Part shown: in pieces, positions 26,157 to 42,602 of the stretch | Layout of the letters: each line of letters starts with the position of its first letter | Numbering within the stretch: the first letter of the stretch is position 1 | From: Minisyncoccota bacterium | GTDB taxonomy: Bacteria > Patescibacteriota > Microgenomatia > UBA1400 > PJMF01 | Assembly (NCBI GenBank): GCA_009991965.1 | Contig: JAACWQ010000004.1 | Location: forward strand, 42,074-106,073 | Direction of reading: 5' to 3' | Length of the DNA stretch: 64,000 nucleotides | The notes under the pieces: generated by a model | Told to the model about the DNA's origin: nothing | Databases searched by the model: none | The model's input: the letters and a program-made list of their open reading frames with translations, nothing else | Program-made: the position numbers and the translations under genes

Positions 26157-26168
26157 CTTTGGGTGGAA

Positions 26169-26956: not shown

Positions 26957-27286
26957 TTACTCCACAGCTTTCAAGAGGGCTTCATCAGCCCACATATTCT
27001 CAATCTCATAGTTCGATTTTGTCGTAAATTGTTGCAAAAAAAGAACGGTGCTATGCTGAGGAAATGGACCTAGATATCCAGTTGGATTTGCTGTTGTTTC
27101 CAACACTTCAAAAATTGCGAAACCAACAAGAATATCATCTACAAAGAGAACAATGTTTTTGTCGGGATATTTGACCGCAACCGCTAATTCCTGCTCTGAA
27201 ATTGCGTGTTTGCCAAACCACTTGCTATCTAATTCTGCTGCAGATGTGGTATCAGCTTCCCGCAATGATCTATGAGAAAAAATCAT
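26957..27286 (-). CDS. hypothetical protein
   Basis: 109-aa ORF, 4-bp overlap with the PIN gene stop. Confidence 0.3.
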   Translation of the reverse strand: MIFSHRSLREADTTSAAELDSKWFGKHAISEQELAVAVKYPDKNIVLFVDDILVGFAIFEVLETTANPTGYLGPFPQHSTVLFLQQFTTKSNYEIENMWADEALLKAVE

Positions 27287-27732: not shown

Positions 27733-28006
27733 AACGTCCAAGTCTACTGGACTCTACCTCTTGTGAAATTTCACGAAAAGCTGCAACAGCAGCAAGATCT
27801 TTATTTTTGGTACGAATTGACTCCAAAAATGCAAAAGACTTAAGGCGCTCGTACTCATCAAGCAGCTCAAGACTAATCATGGCTAGTTGTGATTGGCTTC
27901 GGTTCATGACAATGACGGGTCTGTCAGAATTTTGAACAGTTGCGACAACATCTTTATACTGTCTTTGTACGGATCTAATTGAAACTGTCTTGTTAAGATA
28001 AGGCAT
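27707..28006 (-). CDS. Phd/YefM-family antitoxin
   Basis: Pattern VSIRSVQRQYKDVVATVQNSDRPVIVMNRSQSQLAMISLELLDEYE; overlaps the PIN gene start. Confidence 0.55.
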   Translation of the reverse strand: MPYLNKTVSIRSVQRQYKDVVATVQNSDRPVIVMNRSQSQLAMISLELLDEYERLKSFAFLESIRTKNKDLAAVAAFREISQEVESSRLGRYEKTSSNN

Positions 28007-28026
28007 AGCCCTATGATAACATTTGT

Positions 28027-28281
28027 TTATTTTTTGTCAATCATTTGTCTGACAAACTGCAACTTTATCTCCCTACTCCAACTTTTAATCTCGTATTCTC
28101 GTTTGAGCGCTTCGCTTCTTGTGCCAACTGCTTCCAAATAGACTTGCCGTACTGGTTTGTGTGAACGTGTGTAGTGACCACCTTTGCCCACAAGGTGTTC
28201 CTGAAATCTTCTTGCTGGATCGGTGGAAATGCCAGTGTAGAGCGTGCCATCTGCGCACAAGAGAATGTAAACGGACCACAT
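28027..28281 (-). CDS. GIY-YIG nuclease superfamily protein (YhbQ/UPF0213-like)
   Basis: VYILLCADGTLYTGISTDPARRFQEH...GGHYTR...KREYEIKSW. Confidence 0.75.
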   Translation of the reverse strand: MWSVYILLCADGTLYTGISTDPARRFQEHLVGKGGHYTRSHKPVRQVYLEAVGTRSEALKREYEIKSWSREIKLQFVRQMIDKK

Positions 28282-28290
28282 AGTTGTTGC

Positions 28291-29625
28291 CTAACGATCA
28301 AGTAACTTCATAATCCTCTGCCCTGTATACAGCTCTGTGCCAAACTTGTTGCCACTCGCTTCCTTTTCAAAAAGAACAAAACTGCTGATCGATAGTACGT
28401 TTATCGAAACAAAAACTCCGACAAATATCCAGAGAATGATCTTCGAGTATCGCCCCTCAATCCATTCGAGTATTTTAGCAAGCAGTATTAAAAAAAGTGG
28501 CAGTGAAGAAATAAACATTCTGCCGCCGTAGGCCGCCGCTTTCCAACCACCTTGTAACACGATGATTGCGTACTGAAAACAGAAAAAGATGAAAAGTACT
28601 TTTAGAAAGTAATCCAATTTCTTTTTATACGCCAAACGAACAAACAGAGCTGCAGATACAAATAGAATTGGCGTTCTGGTAAATAAACCATTGGTGAAGT
28701 GAAAAAGTGTTCCAGCCAAATCTCTCATCGAACTTTGACTTTGTTGAGCGGTCATCCAAAGGAAATATGGGTGAGAATCAAATGTATCAAAAGTAGTAAT
28801 CCACTGCAGTACGAGTGGTAAAAACATTAGAAATTGTATTCCAAAGAATACAAAAAGATTTTTTAGTATCTGTTGCCAATGACTTTTATTTTTCTTGAAT
28901 AACACGGCCACAGCAACTAAAACAACTACAGAAATTACAGCGTCCTGTGGACGGGTAATGCTCAGCAAACCAGCAATCAACCCCAGAACAAAGTAATTTT
29001 TGGTACTGAGTCTTTGCTTTTGTTTATAAAAATAGAAGAAAAATAGTGTTGCTAAGAAAAATGAAGCAAAGTGCGAGTTGAGCACATCGAACGAACCATA
29101 GTACAAAAGATTGGTGGATAGCAACAGCAAGAGAACAGCAACACGACCGACACTTTGTTTGAAACGAAGCATCAACAGCAATTTTTCACTGAGCCATGCT
29201 ACTGCTACAACGTACAGAATCGCACCTACTCCAGACAGCATTTGGTATGTATCTGAGTAGCCAGTGCGAGCAAGCGATGCTCCAAAAAAATTTGCAACCA
29301 CAACTACGCCATCTGCCAGAGCGTAAAACGGTAGCAGTAGTAGTGCCGTCCCAGGAGAAAAATGGTTGAGCGCTTTTCCTTGTGAATTTGTCCCAACAAT
29401 CTGCACTATAGGAGAGCTAAGAGGTCGCTGCGAATTATTATTTTCGTGGTTATAGATGTGCCTGTATTCATTGGTAAAATCATTGTCAGCGTCAAAATAC
29501 CAAGAATGCAAATACGCGTAGTACCCTATGCCATCTCCATAAACTGCTTGGCCGGATACAAAATAGTGAATTGAAAATATACTAACAAATGAAATAAAAA
29601 GCAGTGGGAAATAGAATTTCTTCAC
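28291..29625 (-). CDS. polytopic membrane protein, GT-C-fold glycosyltransferase-like (PMT/ArnT-like, tentative)
   Basis: About 11 predicted TM helices and an Asp-containing N-terminal loop (YFDADNDF). Confidence 0.4.
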   Translation of the reverse strand: MKKFYFPLLFISFVSIFSIHYFVSGQAVYGDGIGYYAYLHSWYFDADNDFTNEYRHIYNHENNNSQRPLSSPIVQIVGTNSQGKALNHFSPGTALLLLPFYALADGVVVVANFFGASLARTGYSDTYQMLSGVGAILYVVAVAWLSEKLLLMLRFKQSVGRVAVLLLLLSTNLLYYGSFDVLNSHFASFFLATLFFFYFYKQKQRLSTKNYFVLGLIAGLLSITRPQDAVISVVVLVAVAVLFKKNKSHWQQILKNLFVFFGIQFLMFLPLVLQWITTFDTFDSHPYFLWMTAQQSQSSMRDLAGTLFHFTNGLFTRTPILFVSAALFVRLAYKKKLDYFLKVLFIFFCFQYAIIVLQGGWKAAAYGGRMFISSLPLFLILLAKILEWIEGRYSKIILWIFVGVFVSINVLSISSFVLFEKEASGNKFGTELYTGQRIMKLLDR

Positions 29626-29713
29626 ACGGTTTTCAGTAGATTTGCGAAGTATTCATCATAAGCGTAGTATAACGTTTCCAAGAAACCACGTATCCATACA
29701 CACAAAAATTGCG

Positions 29714-30985
29714 ATGAGAAGTCCCGATCGGAAAATTGGCCTCGTAGAAAAAACCACACGCTGGATTTCGGCAATTGCTCTACTAGCAGTAGCTTCTCTG
29801 CCAGAACAGCAAAAACCTATTTTCAAATCCCTTGGACTTGATATGCCCGGCTCTGCAGATCTTATTTCTGAACCGCCTCCACTCGATGGTGACATAGAAA
29901 AGAACTGGCAAGTCAGAGAGTTAAAAATAAAAGAAGCTTGGGAACTTATACAAAGCGTCATTGGTGATAGAAAAATCGTGCCAGCCAATATTGCTTTTAT
30001 TGACAGTGGATATAGTGCTGCTGCAATGCCGGAAGATCTTAGAGAAATTCCCATTACGAATACATTGCTACTTAACCATCCCCCAGAAGAATACTACGAC
30101 CACGGACTCGCTATGGCAGCTCTCTCTGTTGGGGCTGTGTGGGACAATGAAGCAGGCATTGATCCAATTTGCGCTGCAGAGCTCTGTAATTTCCTGATAG
30201 AAAATGCGGCTAGCGGCGAAACCTACGACAATCCAACTGGGTTCTTTGTGTTTAACTACAGTGACTTGGTGGCGGCTCTCAACTGGCTAACTACACTAAC
30301 AGATGAAAATGGAGAGCCTCAAATTTCTGTGATCAATATGTCTTGGGGTGGTTGGAGCGATGTGACTAGTTTACGAAAAGCGGTAGAGCTGGCGCACGAA
30401 AAAGGCATTCTGCTTGTTGCCGGTACTGGAAACGAAGGAGAAGAAAATCGCTGCTTTTTTCCTGCCAAATATCCTGACGTAATTTCTGTGCGTGCTGTAC
30501 TTCATCTAGAAGGTGATCCAGCAAATTGGGGCAAAGATCTAGCAATAGCTTCATTCTCCAACTCCTGTGACGATAAAAAAGGCGTAGCTGCCCCAGGGTC
30601 ACTTATTAACGCCCCACAGACCAATGCCGAGGGAGTAACTACCCTCGAGTGGATAGCCGGCACCTCTCCTGCTACGGCCGAAGTTACTGGCATGCTTGGG
30701 ATGTTGATTACATTTTTGCAAACTATGGGTATCGATAAAATAGAAGCGGGACTCAGCGCAGAGGAAGCTTTACTGGCCAGCGCAACTATCCCTATATATG
30801 TCGAAGAGACGCAAATAGTAAAATGGGGCTTGGGCATGCCTGATCAAGAAAAGGCAGTAGCATATCTTATGAAAAAATATGGATATACTGTACCAATACC
30901 GACATTTGAAATATTTTTGCCGCAAATTAGTCTGGAGAACAACTACGTTTTATATCTTCCAATGATAAAAAGCGCTCTTACTTAA
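29714..30985 (+). CDS. subtilisin-like serine peptidase (S8)
   Basis: Catalytic triad contexts IAFIDSGYS (Asp), DHGLAMAAL (His), GTSPATAEVTGM (Ser); N-terminal anchor; ORF may start as early as 29642. Confidence 0.7.
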   Translation: MRSPDRKIGLVEKTTRWISAIALLAVASLPEQQKPIFKSLGLDMPGSADLISEPPPLDGDIEKNWQVRELKIKEAWELIQSVIGDRKIVPANIAFIDSGYSAAAMPEDLREIPITNTLLLNHPPEEYYDHGLAMAALSVGAVWDNEAGIDPICAAELCNFLIENAASGETYDNPTGFFVFNYSDLVAALNWLTTLTDENGEPQISVINMSWGGWSDVTSLRKAVELAHEKGILLVAGTGNEGEENRCFFPAKYPDVISVRAVLHLEGDPANWGKDLAIASFSNSCDDKKGVAAPGSLINAPQTNAEGVTTLEWIAGTSPATAEVTGMLGMLITFLQTMGIDKIEAGLSAEEALLASATIPIYVEETQIVKWGLGMPDQEKAVAYLMKKYGYTVPIPTFEIFLPQISLENNYVLYLPMIKSALT

Positions 30986-31208
30986 AAATCCCCTTAAAGA
31001 AAGCTTGAAATCGCATAATAATTTGCTTCAAAGCCGACCACAGCATGAAACAGCTATTGAAAGCAAATATCAGAAGTGGAAAATTAATTAAATTTCCTAA
31101 TAAATTCATGCTAGAAAAACATGACTTATACTCTCTTATATTTAAGAAATCATGTTCTAAAACAAGATCTTGCCTGGTAGAAGCACTCTCTTATAATCTC
31201 TTATCATT

Positions 31209-32660
31209 TTAAAATCCTGGTTCATAATATGTTCCGCTAGCTGCCCCCCTTAATTTAATGAGTTGAACTTGAACCAAACCTTGCAGATCTTTATTTATTG
31301 TAGGTCGTGAAGCGCTGGGTGAAAGCTTAACACATTCTTTTGCAGTAATTGTTGGATTCTCTTGTAAAAAATGCCATATTTTTATTTGTCTTTCATTTAA
31401 ATGTGAGAATGTATCTCCCAACAAAACAACTTTAAAACTGTTTGCTGCATTTTTGAAGATGGGCTCTAGTAGAGACCATTCTTCCATTCTAGATAAAACT
31501 ATATTAATTCCTCTTCCATACTCCTCAAGATAATCTAAGTCTTTTAGTAAAGAAGCGATAATTTCATTTCTACTAAACTGAGAGTCTCTGAGGTTTTCAA
31601 TTGTAATTCCCGGAGGAAGATTTCCTGGATTTGAAATTTCTATCCTATTAGAAAAAATGTTAATTTGAGTATACGTTTCAGTTATAAGATAATCTCTATG
31701 AATAACCGCATTTGCCACAAGTTCTCGAATTGCCTCAGGAGGATACTCGTATTTTTCAACCCTCTTCGAACCAATAATTTCTGCTCTCAGAGAAATATTT
31801 CTAAGTATAAATTGGTGAATTAAATCAATTTGTTCATCAAGGGTCCCAAGAATATCCTGCTTGTCTAAAATTGGAGTAGAAACAGAAAATCCTGCATATC
31901 GCACACATCTAACCACATAACGGGAAAAAGGAAGTAAGGTCTGGGGCTGGACATTAGAAAATATGAGAAAACCTCCAACAGTTGGAAAATAATTACCATT
32001 AAAATTATCTATCACGCCAAGATTTTTCATCACTTTGTTTGTTGGTGCACTATCAACAAATTTTCTTTTAGCTTTTTCAGCACTCTTAATGAGTAATTCT
32101 TTAATCTTGCCAACATCTAAAAGATCTATGCTAGCCTGAGATGCCTGAGTCTTATCAAATTTAAAAATGTCTGAATTCCTAATGAATGCCCTCATTTCTT
32201 CATCAGTAATAACTCTATCCACATTGCCTTCTCGAATACAGGCGCCCCTAGGTAACCCCAGTCTCTTATTAAAGCAAGGCTTTCGCTCCTCGTTTGTTTC
32301 GGAAACACAAAGAACTAGAAGCTCTTTTTTATCAAGCTCAACAATTCTCAAACTATAAATACCATGATTTTGCATTACTTCATTTAAAAAACTTACTATT
32401 TTTTCTTGAAGAAATGCCAAGTCTAGTCCACCCACTATTTCAATTTTGCCACTGTCTCTATCTTCATAAATTCCAAAAACTATAATTCCTCCTCCGGGTT
32501 TGTGAGAGAAGGAAGAAATTGATTTCCAACAGCTACTTGGGAACCCACCTCTAGCGTCTTTAAATTCGACATTGTCTGTCTCAGTTTTATGATGTCTGGC
32601 TTTTTTAATTAATGCAACTAATTGCTCATCATCGAATTTCATAATGAGATTATACTTCAT
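31209..32660 (-). CDS. Schlafen/AlbA_2 domain ATP-binding protein with C-terminal RecG-C-like wHTH
   Basis: N-terminal AlbA_2 motif (ETDNVEFKDARGGFP); C-terminal HATPase_c_4/wHTH-like region. Confidence 0.5.
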   Translation of the reverse strand: MKYNLIMKFDDEQLVALIKKARHHKTETDNVEFKDARGGFPSSCWKSISSFSHKPGGGIIVFGIYEDRDSGKIEIVGGLDLAFLQEKIVSFLNEVMQNHGIYSLRIVELDKKELLVLCVSETNEERKPCFNKRLGLPRGACIREGNVDRVITDEEMRAFIRNSDIFKFDKTQASQASIDLLDVGKIKELLIKSAEKAKRKFVDSAPTNKVMKNLGVIDNFNGNYFPTVGGFLIFSNVQPQTLLPFSRYVVRCVRYAGFSVSTPILDKQDILGTLDEQIDLIHQFILRNISLRAEIIGSKRVEKYEYPPEAIRELVANAVIHRDYLITETYTQINIFSNRIEISNPGNLPPGITIENLRDSQFSRNEIIASLLKDLDYLEEYGRGINIVLSRMEEWSLLEPIFKNAANSFKVVLLGDTFSHLNERQIKIWHFLQENPTITAKECVKLSPSASRPTINKDLQGLVQVQLIKLRGAASGTYYEPGF

Positions 32661-32878
32661 GGTCTGAGCTCTATTTCTTTTCTACCTATCAAGCCCAACT
32701 CTATTAACTAAGTCAATTTACATGGAACTTTACGAAATTCAGAGGAAAAGTTGTTGACGCTGGGAGAATATTAAAACTCATGCTTCCCCAAACAACTTTT
32801 TAGCCGCCTCATACAACGGCAAAACTATTTCCTTTGCCTCAGGCAACAACTTTTTCCAACTTCGAGCCAACTTTTTCA

Positions 32879-33346
32879 TCACAAACTCTCTGCCTTCGCC
32901 TGTTTCCATTTTTTTACTTTGAAAGCAAGAGAAAAAAGTGCGTCAAGATTATCAAAGTGTGCCATAGAATCAGCGCTTGCCAGTATCTCCGCCTCGATCG
33001 TTTCTCTAGGTATCTCTCTGCTCCCCCGATGAGAAAGAATGCAGTGCTCTACTTGCGAAATTTTCTGCTCGGGATACTTATAATTTTCCAAAAGCTCACG
33101 GGCCAACCGAGCTGAGTGAACATGATGTTCAGAATATAGTTTACTGTCTGAAATCTGGGCATAGTCGTGCAACAGCGCAGCAAGCACTGCAACTTCGACA
33201 TCAGCTTGCTTCTTTTTTGCAAGTTTTTTGGAAAAAGCTACAACACTCTGGATGTGATGTGTCCAGGCGCTAAAGCCGTAAATATTATTCTCTGATTTAC
33301 AAGTGTCTTCGACAATTTTTGCTATTTTTGAAACTACTTGACTCAC
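32879..33346 (-). CDS. HD-domain phosphohydrolase
   Basis: H..HD..H..H..D motif set (WTHH, LLHDY, HHVHS, ILSHRG, ASADSMAH). Confidence 0.7.
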   Translation of the reverse strand: MSQVVSKIAKIVEDTCKSENNIYGFSAWTHHIQSVVAFSKKLAKKKQADVEVAVLAALLHDYAQISDSKLYSEHHVHSARLARELLENYKYPEQKISQVEHCILSHRGSREIPRETIEAEILASADSMAHFDNLDALFSLAFKVKKWKQAKAESL

Positions 33347-33361
33347 AATTAGAGCCTATTT

Positions 33362-33763
33362 TTAAACAAATACTTTAGCTAATAACCAGAATAATATCCC
33401 AGCCATACCCCAAAGTGGGATAGACAAAAGACTAGTATACCCTCCTAAGGAATATCTATGATAACTCCATAACCTCTGGCCCATTATTTGATGATAAAAA
33501 TAACCAATGGTCCATTCTAGGAACGTTCCCACCAGCGCAAAAAATAAATATACAGTCATCAGTGATGAACCAAATTTTGATATGTATATACCAACAGCCA
33601 AAAATGTGGGAAGTAGCAAGTAAAAATACTTGCTCCAAGAAAAGTGGTATATTCGAATTTTCTTACCAGATAACTTAAAATATAATTGCTGGGTAGCTGC
33701 TTCAAAAACAACTCCCCCGACCACCATTGAGAGAAAAATAATGATATCCTGAATAGTTACCAT
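33362..33763 (-). CDS. small integral membrane protein
   Basis: 133 aa, four predicted TM helices. Confidence 0.4.
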   Translation of the reverse strand: MVTIQDIIIFLSMVVGGVVFEAATQQLYFKLSGKKIRIYHFSWSKYFYLLLPTFLAVGIYISKFGSSLMTVYLFFALVGTFLEWTIGYFYHQIMGQRLWSYHRYSLGGYTSLLSIPLWGMAGILFWLLAKVFV

Positions 33764-33880
33764 AAACAGAATGGTATTTCATTTGAGCAAGTAAATCAAT
33801 TCAATGTTGACACTCTGGGAGGAAGTTAGAACCTATTTTTACTCTGCTGGGACGAAAGTTTACGTCAGTATAAGCTAGCT

Positions 33881-34678
33881 TTAAGTAGCAACATCCCGAA
33901 CTCTTCTCTCCTGACGAATTGTCAATACTGACAAAAGATTTTCTGCAATCGATGCTTGCAAAATCGCGTTTGTAGAAGCAAGTTCTAGCACTCTCTGTCT
34001 GTATTCCGCACAAAGTTTGGGATCTGGCGTAAACCCAGCATAACCGGTAATTAAGATAGCTGCGCCCATCATATCCATACTTATGTCCATGCAATTAGAT
34101 GTAATGAACTCAAGATTTCCATTGCCAATCTCAGTGGCATACTCGCGAATATCTTCCAAACCAACAAATGTTAGATGACCTCCATACCCTACGAGGGAAT
34201 CCCACGGATGATCTAGTTCCTTCATCCAATCTATCAAAGTGGAAACAAATTCTTTCGCATGTGAAGGAACCACACACAGTATGTCGTAATCTAAATTTAC
34301 AGGATCGTCATAGCGCATTGACCCATAAACCAAAACCACAATCTTGTTGTCTCTCAGATACTGCAAACGTTCTGTAAAAAATACTTTGAGCACCCTGTAA
34401 CCCTCAATCACTCTTGGACTTTTTGCTGAATCTGGGTTAACTTGAAGTGTTTCTAACGCTCTACGAGTATCTGCAATTACTTCAGGGATGCTATTAGGAT
34501 TAAGGAGTAAATTGAATAGAGGTAGTATCGTTCTCTCCGAGTGATATTCTCCAAGAAGTGGTTTTACAAAACTTCTGGATAATGGCGGAAGTAAATCCCA
34601 GTTAGGTGTTGGTAGTTCTGTCATTGCCCCAATCATATCAAACAAAAAAAACGCCGAGTGGCGATTTCTTCGTTTCAT
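33881..34678 (-). CDS. Pol-beta-superfamily nucleotidyltransferase domain protein
   Basis: hG[GS]x9-13Dh[DE] signature (VLVYGSMRYDDPVNLDYDILCVV), unusually placed mid-protein. Confidence 0.45.
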   Translation of the reverse strand: MKRRNRHSAFFLFDMIGAMTELPTPNWDLLPPLSRSFVKPLLGEYHSERTILPLFNLLLNPNSIPEVIADTRRALETLQVNPDSAKSPRVIEGYRVLKVFFTERLQYLRDNKIVVLVYGSMRYDDPVNLDYDILCVVPSHAKEFVSTLIDWMKELDHPWDSLVGYGGHLTFVGLEDIREYATEIGNGNLEFITSNCMDISMDMMGAAILITGYAGFTPDPKLCAEYRQRVLELASTNAILQASIAENLLSVLTIRQERRVRDVAT

Positions 34679-35039
34679 TGTTGACTATCTGGGATGATAT
34701 CCGAACATGGATTGAAAGTCAAAAATTGTTCATGTTTCCAGATACAGCAATGGCTGTGCCTGCTGCTGCTGAATACCTGCGGTGGAAATGTCTGAGTTGA
34801 TGACCACTTCAAACAACAACTAAGCAAGTTGCGTATATTGTTTGTATTGACAAACTTATACTTTTTGTATATGTTAGAAGATGCTCTTTAACATGGTTTA
34901 ATTGTGAAACTCATTCATACTCCATTATTTTAGACCCTTGAGGTCTGAACTTATTTTCCTTGCAAAAAAATGAGTGTTTCCGTCCAGTGACTATTCTTAT
35001 GTAATAATTTTTCACTTGATCAGGGAGATACTAAATAGC

Positions 35040-35320
35040 TCGTGGCTCTTTAGTTGTAGCGGAACGCTATCATATGCGAGCCTGAATGAGCCACATACTA
35101 GGAAGTATCGACCTACTATTATTAAATAAACAGTTTTAGTAAGAAAGGCGCCGATTATGGATACAACGCTTCTTAATTTGTCACAAGTTAAACCTAGCGT
35201 TCCGTTCATAAGGGCGGTCACTTCTGAAAATAATACTCTTGATCATCAGAGTAATCAGACTAATTGTCTGGATTATTCGACTCATGATCGAGTTAAAACA
35301 GATGTAGCCGCCCTTTAGCT
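35040..35320 (+). ncRNA. candidate structured ncRNA upstream of the HTH-RT pair (retron msr/msd-like)
   Basis: Nested inverted repeats gcggaacgct (35060-35069) with agcgttccg (35196-35204), and aagggcgg (35210-35217) with ccgccctt (35308-35315); long imperfect hairpin at about 35229-35290 with apical stem aatcagac/gtctggatt; a TTGACA -35-like hexamer at 34847. Confidence 0.3.
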
Positions 35321-35337
35321 CGAAACAGATTATAACT

Positions 35338-35664
35338 ATGAACTCTTTACCCATATTTTTAAAACAACTTAGAAAAGCGAGTTCTCTGACACAAATAGAG
35401 CTTGCAAATGCTCTAGGAGTATCTACTGTACTAATATCGATGCTTGAGTCTGGTCAAAAAAAAGCCTCGCTTAAATTCTTGCACATATTAGCTCGGAAAT
35501 TGAAAGTTCATCCTGGAGCTATTGCTCCACTCGCTTTCAATGACCATGCTAGCGCGAATCAAAGCGAAACCAGCCAACTAGAAAAAAAATTGATCAATTT
35601 AGGCATTAAACTACAAGAAGAACTGATAAAGAAAAAGGCGAAGTACCTTAAAATAGATGGCTAA
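35338..35664 (+). CDS. XRE-family HTH protein
   Basis: HTH_3 (LTQIELANALGVSTVLISMLESGQKKASLKFLHILARKL); 8-bp overlap with the RT gene start. Confidence 0.65.
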   Translation: MNSLPIFLKQLRKASSLTQIELANALGVSTVLISMLESGQKKASLKFLHILARKLKVHPGAIAPLAFNDHASANQSETSQLEKKLINLGIKLQEELIKKKAKYLKIDG

Positions 35665-36622
35665 TATTTACCCTCAAATTAGTATTAGAAGCAAGAATGA
35701 GCTTGCAAAGCAAATAAGCTCAGTAAAGCTCCCCTTTGAGGGAGCGTTAAGCCTGATTAATAATGTAATTGAAAACTACGACACGTACTGGAAAGACAGC
35801 AAAAAATCAGAACCTCAAAAAAGAAAATATGTAAGGACAGCTGTAGGCACCCCTCTTGATACCCTTCTGAAAGCTATTGATAAAAAGCTCTTGCAGACTC
35901 ATGACAAGCTCATACCTGGCTTTATTTTCGGCGGTGTAAAAGGTAAGAGTCACATTGCAGCTGCATACCATCTTGTAGGAAATAGAAATAAAAGAATCTT
36001 GTTAAAGATGGATATTTCAAGATTCTTCGAGAAAATTACACGAGAACGCGTCTTTTATTTCTTTAACAAAAAATGCAACTGCAGCGTCAAAGCCTCTAAT
36101 TTGCTTGCCGACCTATGCTGTGTACCAAAAGGTAAAAAGGGTAGTACTGACCCTACTAAGACCATAGCTAGAGGTTTCCCAACTTCATCAAGGTTAGCCA
36201 TATGGACCAACTTGGAAACATTTCTTAAATTGCGGCATACAGTAACCAAGAAACTAAAAAATCATGACCCACAAACAGTAATCTTTGTTGACGACATAGG
36301 TATTTCGGCAAGTCGAACATCCAAAGAATCGCTAGATGAAATAAGAAAGTCAGTGCAAAAAATTCTTCTGTCACATGATCGAAATCAACCGCTCCCTGCA
36401 AATAAGGGAAAAACAAAAATCATTCCCTTTTCTGAAGGAGCAGAACATCTTGGACTACTCCTAGGAAGAAATAAAATTAGTATAGGCAGGAAAACCAAAT
36501 CAAGAATGGCAACGATAAGAAGTTTGGTCGGTAAATCGCGTGGTGAAACAAAAAAATCACTAATTAAAAGAGAGGCATCTTACTACAGATACAAAAAACA
36601 AATTGAAGAAACTATCATTTGA
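35657..36622 (+). CDS. reverse transcriptase (small, retron/Abi/DRT-like)
   Basis: RT motifs: LKMDISRFFEKI (motif 2), GFPTSSRLAIWTNLE (motif 4/B'), VIFVDDIGIS (YxDD-type motif 5/C), KTKIIPF...HLGLLLG (motifs 6/7). Confidence 0.6.
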   Translation: MANIYPQISIRSKNELAKQISSVKLPFEGALSLINNVIENYDTYWKDSKKSEPQKRKYVRTAVGTPLDTLLKAIDKKLLQTHDKLIPGFIFGGVKGKSHIAAAYHLVGNRNKRILLKMDISRFFEKITRERVFYFFNKKCNCSVKASNLLADLCCVPKGKKGSTDPTKTIARGFPTSSRLAIWTNLETFLKLRHTVTKKLKNHDPQTVIFVDDIGISASRTSKESLDEIRKSVQKILLSHDRNQPLPANKGKTKIIPFSEGAEHLGLLLGRNKISIGRKTKSRMATIRSLVGKSRGETKKSLIKREASYYRYKKQIEETII

Positions 36623-36773
36623 GCGAACTACATCAATTTTCATTAGTGGTTCACTTTTACACTGCAAAGCTTTGAATCAAACTCTGGATTTCCAATCTTG
36701 CCTGATGTAGCAGCTCGCTATCCAAGAAATCAACCATTTCTTGCGTATTCATTTTTACTTTTAACAACATATT

Positions 36774-37589
36774 TTAACTCTCTTTTGCCACTTCTTCAGC
36801 CAGCTGGGGATTGAGTACTACAACAATAATTCCTAGACTTTTATAAAACGAAAGCCACCAAATACCTCCGCTCTTATCATCTTTGATAGCTACGTTCTTG
36901 TAGGAAAGTACTTCTCCAAATCTACCGACAGTTGGACTTTGCTTGCTTAGCAATTCTGGTAGCCAGTTTGGAGGATCCCAGTACACTTGAAACACTTGCT
37001 CATCAAGAATGCGATCTCCACAATTCTGATAGTAAAGACCCTTAACAATCTTAATTGCTACTCTGTCTACTCTGTCACTATCGATTTTTATTCCATCGAC
37101 TTTTCTGGTTATTAAACCATCAGATGAGGTTGTGACAACGGTAACGATGTCTCTTCTAATAAGGTCTAACTTAGAAACAGTTTTACTTCGTTCATACGGT
37201 CTCATATAACTGGGCTGAGTTCCCTCTTTGAAGACTTGCCGGGCAATGGTATTTTGACCAACTATAGAGAAGCGGTCTCTAATATACTCCTCATCGAGGT
37301 TGAGGAGATTATTACACGCTTTACAAGTTGGTAATTTGTAGCCTCGTGAGTTTGACATCCGATCTAAGGTAAGTGCTAGATGCTCAACACCTTTTTTTGG
37401 AAACAAAGTCTTAGGTGGAACATGATCCCAAGATTCTGCTTCATTTTTCCCACATAAATAGCAAATTAATCCAGATTTCATTAGTTGATATTGTACAGGG
37501 GGAAGATTTGTTTCGCTTATATTGACCGGCCATAATCTTGGCTGCAACATTATGAATTTTTGGTATAGACAACTAATGTCGAGGTGCAC
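36774..37589 (-). CDS. HNH endonuclease domain protein
   Basis: CYLCGK...WDHVPPK...CKACNNLL (CxxC...DH..P...CxxCN); divergent from the TerS gene. Confidence 0.5.
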   Translation of the reverse strand: MHLDISCLYQKFIMLQPRLWPVNISETNLPPVQYQLMKSGLICYLCGKNEAESWDHVPPKTLFPKKGVEHLALTLDRMSNSRGYKLPTCKACNNLLNLDEEYIRDRFSIVGQNTIARQVFKEGTQPSYMRPYERSKTVSKLDLIRRDIVTVVTTSSDGLITRKVDGIKIDSDRVDRVAIKIVKGLYYQNCGDRILDEQVFQVYWDPPNWLPELLSKQSPTVGRFGEVLSYKNVAIKDDKSGGIWWLSFYKSLGIIVVVLNPQLAEEVAKES

Positions 37590-37658
37590 TTGAATTTCTC
37601 AAGGAACATGTAATATTAAAGTGAGCTACTTCAAAAATTAGTTATCAGGTAACTTTAT

Positions 37659-38138
37659 ATGGGCAGAGAAGCAAAACAAAGCAATAACCTAACTAGAAAG
37701 CAATCATCTTTTGTTAAAAGGCTAATTTTGGGTGATTCAGCCACTCAAGCTGCATTGGCTACTTATGGTACTTCCGACCCCAAAGTTGCCTCTTCAATAG
37801 CCAGTGAGAACCTGAATAAACCTGCTATTAGAGAAGCTATTGAGCAGGCTTTCAGATCAAAGGGTCTATCCTTGGATGTAATTGTTTCAAATATTGGAGA
37901 ATTAGCAAATCACAAACCAACAAAAATCAGTGGAGAAACCAAACTAAAAGCTAATATCGAACTCTTAAAGCTGTTGGGGGCATATTATCTAGATAGAAAA
38001 AGATCGAGCATTAGTGTCTCATTCTCATCACAAGTTAGCGCCATGACTTTCAGTGAAGCTAAAGCAAGCATGCTTGAGCTACAAGCAACTACAGAAGAGT
38101 TAATGGCAGACATTGAAACTACCCCCCACACCACCTAA
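37659..38138 (+). CDS. phage terminase small subunit (Terminase_2/P27 family)
   Basis: LTRKQSSFVKRLILGDSATQAALATYGTSDPKVASSIASENLNKPAIREAIEQA matches the TerS family consensus pattern. Confidence 0.65.
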   Translation: MGREAKQSNNLTRKQSSFVKRLILGDSATQAALATYGTSDPKVASSIASENLNKPAIREAIEQAFRSKGLSLDVIVSNIGELANHKPTKISGETKLKANIELLKLLGAYYLDRKRSSISVSFSSQVSAMTFSEAKASMLELQATTEELMADIETTPHTT

Positions 38139-38202
38139 AGTGAATCATAAATAATAATGACTTAGCCCCTTTTCAATGGGCGATAATTTTTTTAGGAAAT
38201 TC

Positions 38203-38484
38203 TCAAAATGGTAATAACTCCGAAGCAGGTACTTTCAAAGCTTTTGCTACTTTATAAAGCGTTCTTATTGTTGGGTTTCTTTCCCCTCGTTCAATCAAAC
38301 CGATATAAGTTCTATGCATTGATAGCAATTCAGCTAACTTTTCTTGAGAGATGCCCCTAGACTGTCTAACTTTTTGCATTTTTTGCCCAAACTTCAGTAA
38401 AATTGAGTGATGAGTTATTGGCTTTCCCATTAAGGGAATATTAGAGACTACTAGTCTCAACTTCGACAGACTCCTTGTCATCAT
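38203..38484 (-). CDS. XRE-family HTH regulator
   Basis: HTH_3 (ISQEKLAELLSMHRTYIGLIERGERNPTIRTLYKVAKAL); divergent from the downstream plus-strand genes. Confidence 0.6.
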   Translation of the reverse strand: MMTRSLSKLRLVVSNIPLMGKPITHHSILLKFGQKMQKVRQSRGISQEKLAELLSMHRTYIGLIERGERNPTIRTLYKVAKALKVPASELLPF

Positions 38485-38562
38485 ACTGTTTCGTTTGTAT
38501 AATCGATAAAACCTTTATCTAATCCTCTGTAACTAAACTCGCTTCAAGACGGGAAAAAATAT

Positions 38563-38868
38563 ATGGCTACTTTTCTTTTGCTTATACTCGTGATTTGGAT
38601 TGTTGTAGTTCCGATTTTGAATTGGTTCTGGCAGTTGCATGAAGACGGTGAACAGTGGAAAAGAGAAGAAGCAGAAGTACAAAAGGAAATGCAAACACAA
38701 AAGGACTGGGAGGCTTATCAAGCAGGGGAAATTCCAATGACAGAAGACGTTGACATGATGCTTCTGCGTAATATGTTTGATTTGCCAATTGAAGAACGGG
38801 CTTCAAGTGTTTGGGCGAAAGCTCTGAGACAAGAGCAGCAAAGAAAGAAAATGGGCATAAAACTCTAA
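38563..38868 (+). CDS. hypothetical small membrane-anchored protein
   Basis: N-terminal TM helix and a charged C-terminus. Confidence 0.35.
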   Translation: MATFLLLILVIWIVVVPILNWFWQLHEDGEQWKREEAEVQKEMQTQKDWEAYQAGEIPMTEDVDMMLLRNMFDLPIEERASSVWAKALRQEQQRKKMGIKL

Positions 38869-38902
38869 GAATACACATAAGTTACCCTGATATGATTGGG
38901 AC

Positions 38903-39553
38903 ATGACAGATAGGGTCATCAAAGTTGAGGTTGATATTAAAGATAAACGGAAATTTCAAGACATTGTACTTCTGGTTGATAGAAAAGACTTTCTTCAAGA
39001 TCTGAACATTTACCTTGAACATTGCGCGCAGGAAATAAATGAAGATAGATCTATCACTAATCAATATATGAGGCCAGTACTACATGACGAGGCATTAAGA
39101 TTAGTACGGAAGTATAGATATCCTGACGGTTTCTCGAGTGCGATTAGCGCAATAGCTCTAAAAGGAATTGTTACAGATTCAGACCTAAGACATTGTTACT
39201 TAGCGAAATTGATCTCTCCCTCGTCTTACGTTGACTCTTACTCAAACACTTTTACTAAAGAAGACCTAGTTATTTTTATTGATCCGAGCATTATCACCTG
39301 GAGAAAAAAAGCAATTCTCGATCAGGTAAAGGGCTTTTTGCTTGATGCCGAGGTAAATATTTCAAAATTTCCCCGAAATCACCCCCTTTGTAGAGATATA
39401 AAACGAGAAATAAAGTGTATGAGAAAATTGTATTTGGATAGAGAACTAAATAATCTAAGCACAAAAAAAATGTCTCAAATATATGAAAGGGAAGAAAAAA
39501 CGATTGACACTTATATTGATAGGTATCGTAATTCCCTTAAATACGACATTTAG
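38903..39553 (+). CDS. hypothetical protein
   Basis: 216-aa ORF followed by a terminator hairpin. Confidence 0.4.
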   Translation: MTDRVIKVEVDIKDKRKFQDIVLLVDRKDFLQDLNIYLEHCAQEINEDRSITNQYMRPVLHDEALRLVRKYRYPDGFSSAISAIALKGIVTDSDLRHCYLAKLISPSSYVDSYSNTFTKEDLVIFIDPSIITWRKKAILDQVKGFLLDAEVNISKFPRNHPLCRDIKREIKCMRKLYLDRELNNLSTKKMSQIYEREEKTIDTYIDRYRNSLKYDI

Positions 39554-39609
39554 AGAAACACTTGCTGTAGATTTTAATTAAGATCATTTTCAGTTAGTTT
39601 CTATCTGAG

Positions 39610-39660
39610 ATATACAGATAGGATAAAAAACCCGAGCAACCTATCTGCCCGGGTTTTTTA
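39610..39660 (+). terminator. intrinsic terminator (two hairpins plus a T-run)
   Basis: ctatctgagatatacagatag hairpin followed by aaaaacccgagcaacctatctgcccgggtttttt. Confidence 0.55.
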
Positions 39661-39669
39661 AAACAACTA

Positions 39670-39903
39670 ATGGTAAATAGCATCCCTTTCATTTCAATAA
39701 AAGTCACTAATAGAGATGGTAAGACTGTGGAAACCCTAGGCAGCCGACGAACAAGACGGGTTTTCCGTTTTATCCAGAGGGAAAAATCTCCAGACGAATT
39801 GTTTGAAGTCTCAGTCACCTACTCAAATGGGATGACTAATGCTACTCCTCCACAATCAAGAGAAAAGACTATTAGAACCTTACAAGTGTTTTTAGAAAAA
39901 TGA
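39670..39903 (+). CDS. hypothetical small protein
   Basis: 77-aa ORF whose stop overlaps the next gene's ATG (ATGA coupling). Confidence 0.3.
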   Translation: MVNSIPFISIKVTNRDGKTVETLGSRRTRRVFRFIQREKSPDELFEVSVTYSNGMTNATPPQSREKTIRTLQVFLEK

Positions 39904-40529
39904 AAAATATTGATCCCAAATCAGGCCTCAAACAGATCGTTACTGGAAAACTTTATCTCCCTAGAAGAGCCATACTTGAACTAATCAGAAGTAGAAGGAT
40001 CACTCCTACTCAGCTAGGTTATTTCGTTATTGCACTAATATCAGCTGATTGGAATCAGGGTGAGTATAGATATGGTCTTATAAGGCATGATATTCGCAGG
40101 TTGGCAGCTATCTGGAATGTTCCATATTCAACTCTCTCAGATAATTTTAAAAAGTTGCAAATAAGTGGGCAATTAACAACGAAGAACAAGTTACTATCGA
40201 TCGTTGACTTCAACGATTTTCAAACATTCAGAGGTCAGTACGCTAACAAAAATTGCATCAGCGACGAAGTTCGGGATCAGATATTTGGAAAATCGTTTTT
40301 ACAATCCGAAATATCAGATTCTAACTCGATCACAGAACCTAAATCTCTTAAGATTCCCTTTAAGGTTGAATTTAATAAGACCCCACCTGGTCCATTACCA
40401 AGTCGCTTAGAAAGAACAATTGAGGACTATCAGCGCATCTATGCTGAAGGTCCATACACAACATTTGGCACTGATGAGATGATGTATCTTGACCAACACA
40501 TGGATGCTGAGGGGAAATACATCCCATGA
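39900..40529 (+). CDS. hypothetical protein (possible island replication or regulatory function)
   Basis: 209-aa ORF in the island; no confident motif. Confidence 0.4.
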   Translation: MKNIDPKSGLKQIVTGKLYLPRRAILELIRSRRITPTQLGYFVIALISADWNQGEYRYGLIRHDIRRLAAIWNVPYSTLSDNFKKLQISGQLTTKNKLLSIVDFNDFQTFRGQYANKNCISDEVRDQIFGKSFLQSEISDSNSITEPKSLKIPFKVEFNKTPPGPLPSRLERTIEDYQRIYAEGPYTTFGTDEMMYLDQHMDAEGKYIP

Positions 40530-40817
40530 TTCTCAGCCAAGAAGCGGTCTCAAGCTTTCAAATTCTGTATCAAAAGAAATGCGGGGAGGAAATTGAGTTT
40601 GAGCAAGCGCGGGTTATGGCTACAAAGGAATTAAGGCGATTTGCCCTGATATATAGACCGGTCCGAATCGAAAACAAAGATTTCTTTAGTAATCTCGTTA
40701 ACGAAAATGGTGAAGATTAGTATAAGATGAACTTGCACTCAGATTATCGATTGGGCTTTTTGATACCCTCGTCGGACAGAGCCTAATCGTTCTGAGTGCA
40801 CCGGCGGGGGTATTAAA

Positions 40818-42545
40818 ATGCAAACCAATATCAAACTTCAAAACCTTAAATGGATCATTTACTGTAGAAAAAGTACCGACACCGAAGATAAACAGATAGA
40901 ATCGTTGCCTGCCCAAAAGAAAGAATTGCTTGATCTTGCTAAACGTAGCGGATTTAATCAGATAGTAAAGATATACACCGAATCGCACTCGGCATTTCAC
41001 CCAGGTAGACCAGAGTTTAATGACATGATTGATCGTCTTTATAAGGGCGAGGCAAACGCAGTGATGGTATGGGCAGGTAATAGAATTGCTCGAAACTCCA
41101 AAGATGCTGGTAGCTTTATTTATGCGATGGATCAGGGGAAAATACTGGCCGTGAGAACTATCGGTGGCACTTACTTTAACACCCCAGACAACAAATTCGC
41201 ACTCAGCATAGACTTCACAGTTTCCAAAAAATCGTCTGATGATCTGAGCGAAGCGGTGCTCAGAGGAAATAGGGTTAAGTTTTTTGAAAACAAGGAATGG
41301 ATTGGACCAGCCAAGCAAGGCTTTATAAATTTTACCGAGCCATATACAAAAAAACGTGACGTTCAGGTCGACCAAGATAGATTCAATCTACTGCAGCTAG
41401 CAGGAGGAAAAATAGTGAGTGGCGAACTAACACCATTAGAATCACTAAATTGGCTGAATCATGATATGGGATATCGAACTCTTCCTCAGAGGAAACAAGG
41501 TGGTGGTCCACTATCAGAAACAACTTTCTATAATGTATTGTCCGATCCCTTTTACTATGGTGTCATGAGCAGAAATGTTCAAGGTGAGGTCCAAGAAGCA
41601 GAACATAAATACTCCAAGATGTTTAGCAAAACAGAGTGGGACATTATCCAGGTCAGACTTGGTAAAAAAAGCCGGTCAAAACAAAAGAAGCATGACTTCC
41701 CTTACAAGGGGGTCATGAGCTGTGGGGAGTGCGGAGGATTTGTGACGGCCGAAGAAAAATGGCAGATCATCTGTCCTGCTTGTAAAACAAAGTTTGCCAA
41801 GACCAAAAAACGCACAAGCTGCATCTCTTGCGGTTTGGAAATTGATCAAATGAAAAATCCCACTATCTTGAACTACGTTTATTATCACTGCACTAAAAAA
41901 GTTAACAAAAACTGTGCCCAGGGTTATCTTGAAATGAGCGAACTAGAACGGCAGATTGATTCGGAACTCCAGCGATTCGAGATTGACCCAGACTTCAAGG
42001 ACTGGGCAATCAACCACTTGAGTGAGCTGAATGAACACGAGTCGAAGCAAGATGAGCGAGCTACTGTACGCAATACTGGCAATTATGAGAACCTGAAAAC
42101 ACAACTTAGGCGGATGACAAAACACCGGTTCTCTGACTCGTACGAGGAATCAAGCCAAGAAGAGAAAGAGGTTTTCGAAGATGAACTAAATAAGCTCAAG
42201 GCACAAATAGAAACAACAAAAGATAGCATTAAAAATACTGATGAGAAACAGTATGATTGGATTGAGCTATCAAGGAAAACGTTCGAGTTTGCTTGTTATT
42301 CCAGATACTGGTTCCGTCACGGGGACATTAAAACTAAGACACAAATCCTCCAGTTACTTGGTCAGAACCTAAAGCTGTATAACAAGAAAGTGTTGGTAGA
42401 CGAGGATAATCTTTGGTGGCTAATTGAAAAAGCAAAGAAAGAAGTTGAAATCTTAGGAGTCAGGGTCGAACCTACAAAAAAAGCGAGTCAATCAAGCTTT
42501 AATGCCCTCTTTGATCCCGCCATTCCCACATTGTTGCGGGACTAG
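40818..42545 (+). CDS. large serine recombinase
   Basis: N-terminal resolvase catalytic domain (IIYCRKSTDTEDKQ, Ser nucleophile), recombinase domain, zinc ribbon (CGECGG...CPAC; CISCG...HC), coiled coil. Confidence 0.8.
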   Translation: MQTNIKLQNLKWIIYCRKSTDTEDKQIESLPAQKKELLDLAKRSGFNQIVKIYTESHSAFHPGRPEFNDMIDRLYKGEANAVMVWAGNRIARNSKDAGSFIYAMDQGKILAVRTIGGTYFNTPDNKFALSIDFTVSKKSSDDLSEAVLRGNRVKFFENKEWIGPAKQGFINFTEPYTKKRDVQVDQDRFNLLQLAGGKIVSGELTPLESLNWLNHDMGYRTLPQRKQGGGPLSETTFYNVLSDPFYYGVMSRNVQGEVQEAEHKYSKMFSKTEWDIIQVRLGKKSRSKQKKHDFPYKGVMSCGECGGFVTAEEKWQIICPACKTKFAKTKKRTSCISCGLEIDQMKNPTILNYVYYHCTKKVNKNCAQGYLEMSELERQIDSELQRFEIDPDFKDWAINHLSELNEHESKQDERATVRNTGNYENLKTQLRRMTKHRFSDSYEESSQEEKEVFEDELNKLKAQIETTKDSIKNTDEKQYDWIELSRKTFEFACYSRYWFRHGDIKTKTQILQLLGQNLKLYNKKVLVDEDNLWWLIEKAKKEVEILGVRVEPTKKASQSSFNALFDPAIPTLLRD

Positions 42546-42602
42546 GGGTCGAACCTAGCCTGTGAGATTATGAGCCTCACGTGCACCGTACACTATCCCG
42601 CG
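42534..42602 (-). tRNA. tRNA-like gene, anticodon CAT; C1xA72 mismatch suggests an initiator tRNA-fMet; D-loop unusually short
   Basis: Reverse strand folds as acceptor CGCGGGA/TCCCGCA, D stem GTGT/GCAC, anticodon stem-loop TGAGG-CTCATAA-TCTCA, T arm CTAGG-TTCGACC-CCTAG; 3' end overlaps the recombinase stop codon. Confidence 0.45.

Follow-up and report, generated by a model that had tools for sequence, protein, structure and literature searches.

Window positions 34684–42536 very probably constitute a 7,853-bp integrative element, placed at the very 3' end of a tRNA(CAU) gene by a large serine recombinase (LSR), the window being the whole 64,000-nt stretch of contig JAACWQ010000004.1 (Minisyncoccota bacterium) that was analysed here. 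In public records, the host of the LSR is annotated as Candidatus Pacebacteria, within the Patescibacteria or candidate phyla radiation (CPR). The safer description is that of an LSR-driven integrative cargo element. The initial annotation of this DNA had proposed an integrative element ending in an LSR that overlaps the tRNA(CAU) gene, and this was borne out; the extent assigned to it, 31000–42602, was not, as the left junction lies at 34676–34683. The class of enzyme itself is known; what is new here is a tRNA-targeting large serine integrase family of CPR bacteria with the attP attachment site inside the integrase gene. The mobile elements of CPR/Patescibacteria are barely characterised, and the present one is precisely delimited and belongs to a probably active family whose attP, attB, attL and attR sites could be mapped.

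Attachment sites, recombinase and target tRNA

The sites and genes that define the element and its target are the following, loci in other genomes and contigs being designated by L numbers throughout:

34646–34675, no strand: B arm of attL, a hairpin terminator plus T-rich tail, AAAAAAAACGCCGAGTGGCGATTTCTTCGTTT, which flanked the tRNA 3' end before integration
34676–34683, plus strand: attL core CATTGTTG, identical to 42529–42536; predicted crossover TG at 34682–34683
34684–34800, plus strand: P' arm (about 34684–34710) and tail open reading frame (ORF)
40818–42545, plus strand: LSR, integrated short form of 575 aa, C-terminus ..AIPTLL-RD-stop, with RD and the stop derived from the tRNA antisense strand
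42529–42536, plus strand: attR core CATTGTTG; predicted crossover TG at 42535–42536, corresponding to tRNA positions 72/71
42533–42602, minus strand: target tRNA(CAU), 70 nt; ARAGORN (start 42533/4), Rfam 42.8 bits
42666–42740, plus strand: second tRNA(CAU)
Predicted attB junction of the window strain: ..TTCGTTTCATTGTTGCGGGACTAGG..; 60-mer centred on the core, CGCCGAGTGGCGATTTCTTCGTTTCATTGTTGCGGGACTAGGGGTCGAACCTAGCC
Predicted attP of the window element, 60-mer centred on the core: CCCTCTTTGATCCCGCCATTCCCACATTGTTGACTATCTGGGATGATATCCGAACATGG

The left junction was found by aligning the 10 kb upstream of the LSR of a related element, L014, to the window, which matched L014 positions 1062–1128 to window positions 34644–34712. 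The two junctions are alike in having a hairpin terminator, TTG and then ..TGGGA.GA.ATC.GAACATGGAT. Moreover, homologues of the P' arm of the window occur in the attL of L014, in that of L040 and at 12 scars in seven other genomes; in the genomes of other species, 12/12 scars lie on the 3' side of the tRNA in the expected orientation. A P' profile built from 13 sites (the window, L014, L040 and scars in L020, L022, L027, L057 and L073) matched the window twice in an nhmmer scan, at 34679–34717 (E = 2.4e-9) and at 33805–33839 (E = 2.2e-9), with nothing near 31.0 or 23.8 kb. The initial annotation had suggested a search for att-like repeats around its proposed edges; comparison of 30–31.4 kb with 42.4–42.8 kb, in direct and inverted orientation, gave chance-level matches only, and repeat searches, searches for tRNA-end copies and the P' profile found no att-like repeat or half-site at 31.0 kb. 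Copies of the tRNA 3' end (19–32 nt, at least 72% identity) were found nowhere else in the window, which fits a serine recombinase, an enzyme that needs only a 2-bp overlap, and rules out a long repeat of the tyrosine-integrase type. An inverted copy of the P arm was not found in the window at 15/20 matches or more, nor was the small-segment motif of L014, and a search for the motif ATRTGGGA was uninformative.

The enzyme that closes the element carries a Resolvase domain (PF00239, E = 5.8e-16, residues 13–150), a weak match to the Recombinase domain (PF07508, E = 1.5e-3) and the cysteine clusters CGECGG..CPACK..CISCG..HC..C of a zinc ribbon, within a protein larger than ~450 aa. It matches the phrog_95 'integrase' profile at 6.8e-46, and both PF07508 and PF13408 are precomputed for many of its homologues of 35–47% identity. 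A sequence search of the PDB aligned the catalytic domain only, to a conjugative-transposon recombinase (3g13, residues 6–156), including the YCRKST motif that probably holds the nucleophile serine. Matches to the NCBIfam XisF and CcrB models lie far under their cutoffs. Homologues number 410 at E ≤ 1e-10, nearly all from Microgenomates-type CPR bacteria. The recombinase is, as had been anticipated, an integrase-type LSR and not a small resolvase or invertase, and it is predicted, indirectly, from filled and empty sites across species and from assembly breakpoints at the cores, to catalyse attP x attB integration.

As indicated by sequence comparison, attP on the circular form of the element would consist of P arm, TG and P' arm (..GCCATTCCCACATTGT-TG-ACTATCTGGGATGATATCCGAACATGG..), and attB in the chromosome would consist of the T-rich terminator, TG and the tRNA 3' end (..TTCGTTTCATTGT-TG-CGGGACTAGGGGTCGAACCTAGCC..). 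Recombination between them would have generated attL at 34676–34683 and attR at 42529–42536, leaving the tRNA intact because only positions 72/73 and the trailer derive from the P arm. When the arms of three complete elements (7,853, 10,617 and 6,116 bp) were swapped at the TG, the rebuilt attB sequences resembled real empty sites and the rebuilt attP sequences displayed a TCCCA(N6)TG(N6)TGGGA symmetry. In the window this reads TCCCA-CATTGT-TG-ACTATC-TGGGA, with its symmetry centre on the predicted crossover TG.

The half-sites show a further regularity. Outward from the TG, the B' half-site in the 3' part of the tRNA reads CGGGAC TAGGAG TCGAACCTA, and the P' consensus reads AGAATG TGGGAG GATAT CCGAACCTA. 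The inner motif T(A/G)GGAG lies at the same distance from the centre in both, and the outer motif (T/C)CGAACCTA lies 5 bp further out in P', where CCGAACCTA starts 18 nt after the TG, than in B', where TCGAACCTA starts 13 nt after it. In LSRs, the outer (zinc domain, ZD) motif is as a rule 5 bp closer to the centre in attB than in attP (Rutherford et al. 2013, PMC3783163). An offset of this kind is what enables the zinc-ribbon and coiled-coil domains of an LSR to distinguish attP and attB. The more distant element L083 has the same 5-bp shift, with TTCGAACCC at 12 nt from the core in B' versus TTAGAACCT at 17 nt in P'. The half-sites obey a structural rule of the class, and these enzymes and their sites are therefore candidates for new orthogonal integrases.

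The LSR stop codon (42543–42545) lies 13 nt inside the minus-strand tRNA(CAU), whose 5' 45 nt are identical across 56 species genomes. A C1·A72 mismatch gives this tRNA an initiator-like feature. Other initiator marks are missing, since the anticodon stem lacks the three G-C pairs and 11:24 is U:A, and the gene was left as an initiator-like tRNA(CAU).

Further observations concern the tRNA and the 3' part of the LSR gene. An 11/12 sigma-70-like site at 42636–42609 drives the target tRNA; after integration the transcript would run antisense into the LSR 3' end unless terminated, and could damp LSR expression. Among the tRNA 3' trailers of 51 species loci (L018–L073), A73 is nearly always followed by C-A (..GCAACA) and not by an encoded CCA, and these trailer bases belong to the conserved inner B arm (TGTTG). 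Within the LSR gene, positions 42456–42474 resemble a T arm (GGAGTCAGGGTCGAACCTA); this motif is situated 83 nt upstream of the real T arm, and GTCGAACCTA is invariant in four LSR genes. The relic L078 (9534–9620) retains the LSR gene only from exactly this motif onward, joined to native flank, and the motif may act as a secondary site of recombination. Its interpretation as an att relic was rejected, since the sequence encodes a conserved (V/L)EP motif and its orientation and distance are wrong for a P arm.

Empty sites, the divIC–tRNA hotspot and coexisting alleles

When 185,579 species genomes were searched for the first 45 nt of the tRNA, counted from its 5' end, 56 loci were obtained, three of them filled (L033, L040 and L046), about 50 empty and three too short to judge. 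The element is thus absent from about 50/56 species genomes, and the comparison with related genomes suggested by the initial annotation did reveal empty sites. These consist of a hairpin and T-rich tract followed by (A/T)TGTTGCGG, so that the junction reads (A/T)TGTTG-CGGGAC.., and contain no LSR. Across them the B arm is loosely specified, with TGT by the centre conserved and the remainder an A/T-rich terminator, which may explain how a new element could enter beside a decayed older one.

The surrounding gene order is conserved: Xer (minus), DivIC (plus), a variable interval of 0.1–5 kb, tRNA(CAU) (minus), tRNA(CAU) (plus), in some cases CuOx, GroEL (minus) and GroES (minus). The divIC gene ends within ~100 nt of the tRNA in L036, L041 and L054. 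In the window it ends at 23796 and the tRNA 3' end lies at 42533, so that the 18.7 kb between them are extra relative to these three loci. Of this interval, the part from 23.8 to 34.7 kb appears, from the features below, to be older material in a divIC–tRNA hotspot, outside the present element:

24965–25578: DUF5674 pair (p92/p112)
27283–28006: PIN/antitoxin pair
28027–28281: GIY-YIG ORF
31209–32660: Schlafen protein, SLFN_AlbA_2 plus HATPase_c_4
32879–33346: HD protein, HD profile match
33805–33878, plus strand: older attL scar of the same family, P' arm (nhmmer match 33805–33839) plus short-type tail TLWEEVRTYFYSAGTKVYVSIS-stop
33881–34678: NT265, putative nucleotidyltransferase of 265 aa, NTP_transf_2 at E = 0.081 only

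The stretch from 31.2 to 34.68 kb also holds a membrane protein, and that from 23.8 to 31 kb a PRK-like kinase, a methyltransferase-like gene, a 444-aa protein (membrane-like by sequence) and an S8 peptidase. The scar at 33805 marks the left boundary of a relic of which NT265 alone persists; the position of NT265 between this scar and the present attL marks it as a relic of an earlier family member. The family thus appears to use the divIC–tRNA hotspot repeatedly, leaving scars behind. Homologues of p92/p112 adjoin the tRNA in L069 and L066 without any LSR, which points to piecemeal accretion.

Base composition does not mark these boundaries. The GC content is 0.449 over 1–22400 and 0.453 over 42603–64000 (~0.45 for the core of the window), 0.392 over 23797–34675 and 0.384 over 34684–42536. 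The AT-rich shift reported at ~31.0 kb is real, with GC falling from 0.47 to 0.33 at ~30.8–31.0 kb, but it is no island edge: low GC (0.35–0.43) begins already at 23.0 kb, and the GC-normal sequence left of 31.0 kb spans only ~1 kb and corresponds to the 3' half of the gene for the S8 peptidase. Since the 18.7 kb between divIC and the tRNA are all extra and all low in GC, 31.0 kb has no special status. In a multi-layered hotspot, composition breaks alone misplace island edges.

These data also bear on the view that the whole low-GC block, from 31.0 to 42.6 kb or from 23.8 to 42.5 kb, is one island mobilised by the LSR, with the Schlafen, HD and nucleotidyltransferase genes as cargo. Low GC is indeed continuous from 23.0 to 42.5 kb apart from ~1 kb, the block does not lie between divIC and the tRNA in L036, L041 and L054, and all long contigs of the strain carry it entire. 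However, a complete attL (terminator, core and P' arm) stands at 34676–34717 and a scar at 33805–33839, with nothing comparable at 31.0 or 23.8 kb; an assembly break falls exactly at 34683 and not at 31.0 kb; and the p92/p112 homologues occur beside the tRNA elsewhere without an LSR. We consider a single large island hardly credible. Accordingly, the defence cargo listed in the initial annotation is divided between layers: the reverse transcriptase module, a type VI retron, lies inside the 34684–42536 element, and the Schlafen/AlbA_2 ATPase, the HD hydrolase and the putative nucleotidyltransferase lie outside it.

Within the hotspot, the stretch 23797–31000 resembles an older accretion of toxin-antitoxin and defence genes and has no recognisable att scar. 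In L017, L022, L046, L051 and L060, the tRNA(CAU) gene or pair stands in reverse orientation with respect to Xer/DivIC and GroEL, and the LSR element always lies on the side of the tRNA 3' end, whichever the tRNA orientation. A conserved segment of ~110–145 nt occurs upstream of the tRNA at L014 943–1096 and also in L021, L030, L050, L060, L065 and L071. It comprises TCCTCCGCC..CGGACA..CTCAGAGTTGATGCA.. and a terminator, and has no Rfam match. On one side it is flanked by TTGCGGGACTAGG, 13 nt that partially duplicate the tRNA 3' end, and on the other by the tRNA or attL; it may represent a miniature element or else encode a small RNA. In L051 (4073–4088) and in L069 (~2690, minus strand), 16 nt of the tRNA 3' end, TTGCGGGACTAGGAGT, are repeated at least 58 nt away from the tRNA. 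These 16-nt copies imply a different crossover point, in the T loop, and another element family, probably of the tyrosine-integrase type, may use the same tRNA.

Metagenomic assemblies provide evidence at the level of the population. In the JGI metagenome 3300004210, the left-flank contig L077 ends on 34683, the last base common to attL and the predicted attB. The element contig L003 of the same metagenome (7,965 nt) spans 34624–42588 and so comprises the element with an overlap of exactly 60 nt on each side, counted up to the left core end and from the right core start, its right end falling at core start plus 59. The Logan contig L005 ends at 42558 (core start plus 29), so that 30 nt are included from the right core start on, which fits k=31. 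Breaks at 34683 and at the right core are the signature of a de Bruijn bubble in which flank-core-P' and flank-core-B' are the two paths, as expected if filled and empty alleles coexist in 3300004210. A circle was discarded as the cause of the breakpoints, as it would place the breaks on the opposite side of each core. Furthermore, in at least four samples all ORFs and the two att sites are intact and the same.

The recombinase gene across attP and its C-terminal tail

The core at 42529–42536 lies inside the LSR ORF, which ends at 42545, so that the crossover falls within the integrase gene and the C-terminus changes on integration. In the rebuilt attP of the window element the LSR continues in frame as ..PTLL-TIWDDIRTWIESQKLFMFPDTAMAVPAAAEYLRWKCLS-stop, a protein of 611 aa with a 38-aa tail. 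The corresponding proteins are ..PILL-RMWEEIRTWITRQSEFNFPELIAKAPNNEEYWV-stop (605 aa) in L014 and ..PSLL-TMWEKVRTYFTSKKAVNYVTIS-stop (606 aa) in L040, and in L083 the tail, ..AWRR-TIDAVRTYFINNYSMVPVYSAL-stop, is again in frame. Tails measure 20–38 aa and are homologous in the three complete elements. In the integrated state, homologues with TGG in place of TAG in the tRNA T stem read on through the tRNA (..LLRDWESNPACEIMSLTCTVHYPAR..), and the C-terminus of more distant homologues is W(D/R)SNPR, which corresponds to the T arm of other tRNAs read in antisense.

The scars share long and short classes of tail, with stop positions conserved within each class, and the arginine codons of the tail vary (CGA, AGA, CGG, CGT). 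In long tails, the proportion of synonymous differences (pS) exceeds that of nonsynonymous ones (pN) in 6/6 pairs, with dN/dS of 0.14–0.42, also beyond the 26-bp half-site (four sequences, 31 codons), the pattern of purifying selection. From the in-frame tail, the codon variation and pS > pN, the tail seems to be translated as part of the enzyme, and to be so in the excised state only. The free form, made from the circle alone, would carry the conserved tail (M/I/L)W(D/E)(D/E)(I/V)RT(W/Y)(F/I).., and the integrated form would be devoid of it; such a swap may tune LSR activity or directionality.

As a tentative proposal, we suggest that an LSR clade across the Patescibacteria (Pacebacteria, Levybacteria and probably other Microgenomates) shares an attP core within the recombinase gene, tRNA 3' targets and two enzyme forms, the swap acting as a built-in sensor of the integration state that would bias directionality or block re-integration. 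If true, this would be a layer of control not described for serine integrases; a limited literature search found no report of attP inside the integrase gene for this class. The location of attP inside the recombinase gene would provide a testable natural coupling of enzyme form to integration state.

Several points weigh against the integration and tail-swap readings. At the level of sites, the assignment of the crossover dinucleotide relies on symmetry and common bases, and entry into a site already occupied by a relic is accounted for only by the loosely conserved B arm. No attB or attP of the window strain was recovered at read or contig level. A metagenome scan with a degenerate pattern for the four att junctions returned only the L078 relic, from another genome, in a collection that evidently did not include the JGI samples holding the window strain, and every long left-flank contig, looked up with the S8 peptidase and NT265 proteins, was filled. 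The right-end breakpoint could stem from co-occurring species that share the tRNA, and only the left one is strain-specific, in one sample. As to the tail, dN/dS rests on four sequences of 31 codons, conservation up to ~26 bp from the centre could be due to DNA binding and not to the peptide, and a query with a chimera of C-terminus and tail found fragments only, and no long-form LSR, in a database of 5.8 billion proteins.

Some of these points would suit a fixed remnant, in which the LSR is inactive or domesticated and the tail ORF simply follows from the conservation of DNA-binding sites. Neither a circle nor an empty allele was recovered directly, many related genomes retain scars only or truncated LSR relics such as L078, and the integrated C-termini are unconstrained, being RD-stop in some elements and tRNA read-through in others. 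Set against this, the window element is preserved unchanged in its ORFs and att sites in at least four samples, the assembly-graph signature points to a coexisting empty allele, pS exceeds pN in the tail beyond the half-site, stops are conserved within each tail class, and family members occupy different chromosomal contexts. We therefore regard a fixed remnant as very unlikely, and return to the 7,853-bp element as a member of a family with conserved and variable parts.

Conserved module, cargo and comparison with known systems

The genes of the element other than the LSR are as follows:

34847–35156, plus strand: putative retron promoter and non-coding RNA (ncRNA; msr/msd) region, promoter-like site 10/12 at 34847–34875
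35157–35318, plus strand: p53, 53-aa ORF, called as a gene on all contigs; no family match
35338–35664, plus strand: type VI retron helix-turn-helix (HTH) protein (XRE); PADLOC HTH_VI 1.4e-12, Pfam HTH_3 5.6e-12
35657–36622, plus strand: type VI retron reverse transcriptase (RT); PADLOC RT_VI 2.9e-31, positions 1–274 of 279; RVT_1 1.3e-10
36774–37589, minus strand: HNH-like p271 (258 aa, 36774–37550, according to gene callers); HNH_5 at E = 0.031 only, CxxC..DH..CxxCN motif
37659–38138, plus strand: TerS-like protein; Terminase_2 3.1e-08, residues 11–68 against profile positions 1–56 of 141; phrog_51 1.2e-11
38203–38484, minus strand: XRE93, XRE-family repressor candidate; HTH_3 3.1e-17, homologues in L014 and L046
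38563–39553, plus strand: p101 and p216, no significant family match; p101 has an N-terminal hydrophobic helix (by sequence)
39670–39903, plus strand: p77, module member, with a 51% identical homologue in L014
39900–40529, plus strand: p209, predicted winged-helix DNA-binding protein, module member, with homologues in L014 and L040
40526–40720, plus strand: p64, with homologues of 45–60% identity at the same position in L010, L014, L017, L033, L040 and L046

The relatives that were fetched (L010/L033, L014/L015, L017, L040 and L046) bring the number of independent elements to seven, the one in the window included, and encode LSRs 61–77% identical to that of the window. In every one the LSR gene overlaps this tRNA(CAU) by 13 nt up to its stop, and the elements occupy at least three different chromosomal contexts. 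Their cargo differs, with a type I restriction-modification (R-M) system in L010, Bro-N and Macro proteins in L014 and a 554-aa trypsin-like protease in L040, compared with the type VI retron, HNH-like and TerS-like genes of the window element. The family thus appears to combine a conserved module adjacent to the LSR with swappable cargo, part of it putatively for defence (retron, type I R-M, protease). In L040 an 88-aa ORF occupies the p77 position and is matched by position alone. A few relatives of p209 match Rep3_N, RP-C or Phage_rep_O, and p209 could be a regulator or a replication initiator. An ORF of 62–64 aa lies directly upstream of every related LSR, and p64, for which Pfam and NCBIfam profile searches gave no family match, is a candidate recombination directionality factor (RDF).

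The more distant element L083 (Levybacteria, complete genome CP066685.1, 6119–11797) measures 5.5 kb and encodes an LSR 45% identical to that of the window. It lies at the 3' end of tRNA-Ser(TGA) in a tandem tRNA-Ser array, with core CTTGGCGG and an in-frame tail of the VRTYF type. The whole LSR clade thus targets tRNA genes, at least two different tRNAs, a mode of targeting earlier regarded as rare and unproven (PMC7192596).

The retron of the window element consists of a clade VI RT and an adjacent HTH gene that overlaps the RT start; the match of the RT to the NCBIfam retron St85 RT (9.7e-18) is below cutoff. The sequence 34800–35160 folds with a z-score of -2.4, computed on the window sequence alone, and has no Rfam match. 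Four independent assemblies break in the retron leader/HTH region, with ends at 34961, 35356, ~35374 and 35550; abundant multicopy single-stranded DNA (msDNA) or a variable stretch might disturb assembly there. A promoter-like site (11/12) on the plus strand at 38475–38503, divergent from XRE93, faces the operon p101-p216-p77-p209-p64-LSR, which XRE93 may repress. The remaining cargo genes are less well defined: the sole recognisable part of the TerS-like protein is its DNA-binding N-terminus, its sole phage match is the TerS of Pseudoalteromonas phage BS5 (52% over 53 aa), and the HNH-like protein has no GenBank phage match. The retron, HNH-like and TerS-like genes may serve phage defence or interference. 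The gene content listed in the initial annotation is largely present, although its HNH and nucleotidyltransferase calls rest on sub-threshold matches. Its statement that TerL, portal and capsid genes are absent held, with no match among the 13 ORFs in Pfam and PHROGs; the same searches found no structural, lysis or large-terminase genes of the kind expected in a prophage, and the element is only 7.85 kb long.

This gene content raises the question of a phage satellite, similar to phage-inducible chromosomal islands (PICIs), that would excise upon helper infection and whose TerS-like protein, together with the HNH-like one, would divert helper packaging. Such a role would agree with a small integrase-bounded element devoid of structural genes, with the divergent XRE repressor and operon and their strong 11/12 promoter-like site, with a TerS-like gene adjoining an HNH-like gene, and with an LSR that closes a putatively repressible operon. 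However, the TerS match is limited to the N-terminal DNA-binding part and the HNH match is weak. Both genes are peculiar to the window element, neither being found in L010, L014, L017, L033, L040 or L046, where relatives carry type I R-M, Bro-N/Macro or the trypsin-like protease instead. Searches of Pfam, PHROGs and NCBIfam recognised no primase, helicase, replicase, capsid-size or packaging-interference gene, and no relative was found in GenBank phages or in IMG/VR, which was scanned with the LSR, nor any candidate helper. The element is also small, typical PICIs being larger than 7.85 kb. We consider the satellite reading unlikely and retain that of an LSR-driven integrative cargo element.

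Compared with known large serine integrases of temperate phages and integrative elements (Listeria A118/LI, phiC31, Bxb1, SPbeta SprA, SCCmec CcrB and XisF), the LSR family described here has the same order of Resolvase, Recombinase and Cys-rich zinc ribbon domains with a long insert, short att sites with a non-palindromic central dinucleotide, and a shared inner motif with the attP outer motif 5 bp outward. A small conserved ORF adjoins the integrase here, and some known RDFs are likewise small, such as TP901-1 Orf7 and SprB. The present family differs in its target, a tRNA 3' end, in the attP core inside the integrase gene and in its CPR host. Use of t(m)RNA genes by 14/297 serine-integrase (S-Int) islands has been called previously unreported (Mageeney et al. 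2020, PMC7192596).

The closest parallel to the tail swap is Myxococcus phage Mx8, whose integrase (IntP/IntX) gene contains attP and, on integration, becomes a recombinant gene with a different 3' end (PMC6070905). In a similar manner, integration here exchanges a conserved tail of 20–38 aa for RD-stop or for tRNA-antisense read-through. Mx8 Int is a tyrosine recombinase, of another mechanism, whose altered activity was shown experimentally, whereas the functional effect proposed here is inferred.

The cargo resembles type VI retrons in the HTH gene that overlaps the start of a full-length RT_VI match and in the structured 5' non-coding region with a promoter-like site; here, the ncRNA region is without an Rfam match and the defence role is putative. 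With PICIs and Staphylococcus aureus pathogenicity islands (SaPIs) the element shares its small, integrase-bounded form, the pairing of a repressor and a divergent operon, the presence of a TerS-like gene and the absence of capsid genes. It differs from them in that neither a pri-rep module nor a gene for capsid remodelling or packaging interference is recognisable, in a serine instead of a tyrosine integrase, and in a TerS-like gene that is not conserved in the family. Finally, like the tyrosine-integrase islands of the Islander/TIGER type, the family inserts at the 3' end of a tRNA gene, preserves the tRNA, reuses a hotspot and leaves arrays of decayed islands. In contrast to those islands, it employs an enzyme of a different family, an 8-bp core instead of a long direct repeat, and a crossover at tRNA positions 71/72 and not in the anticodon or T loop.

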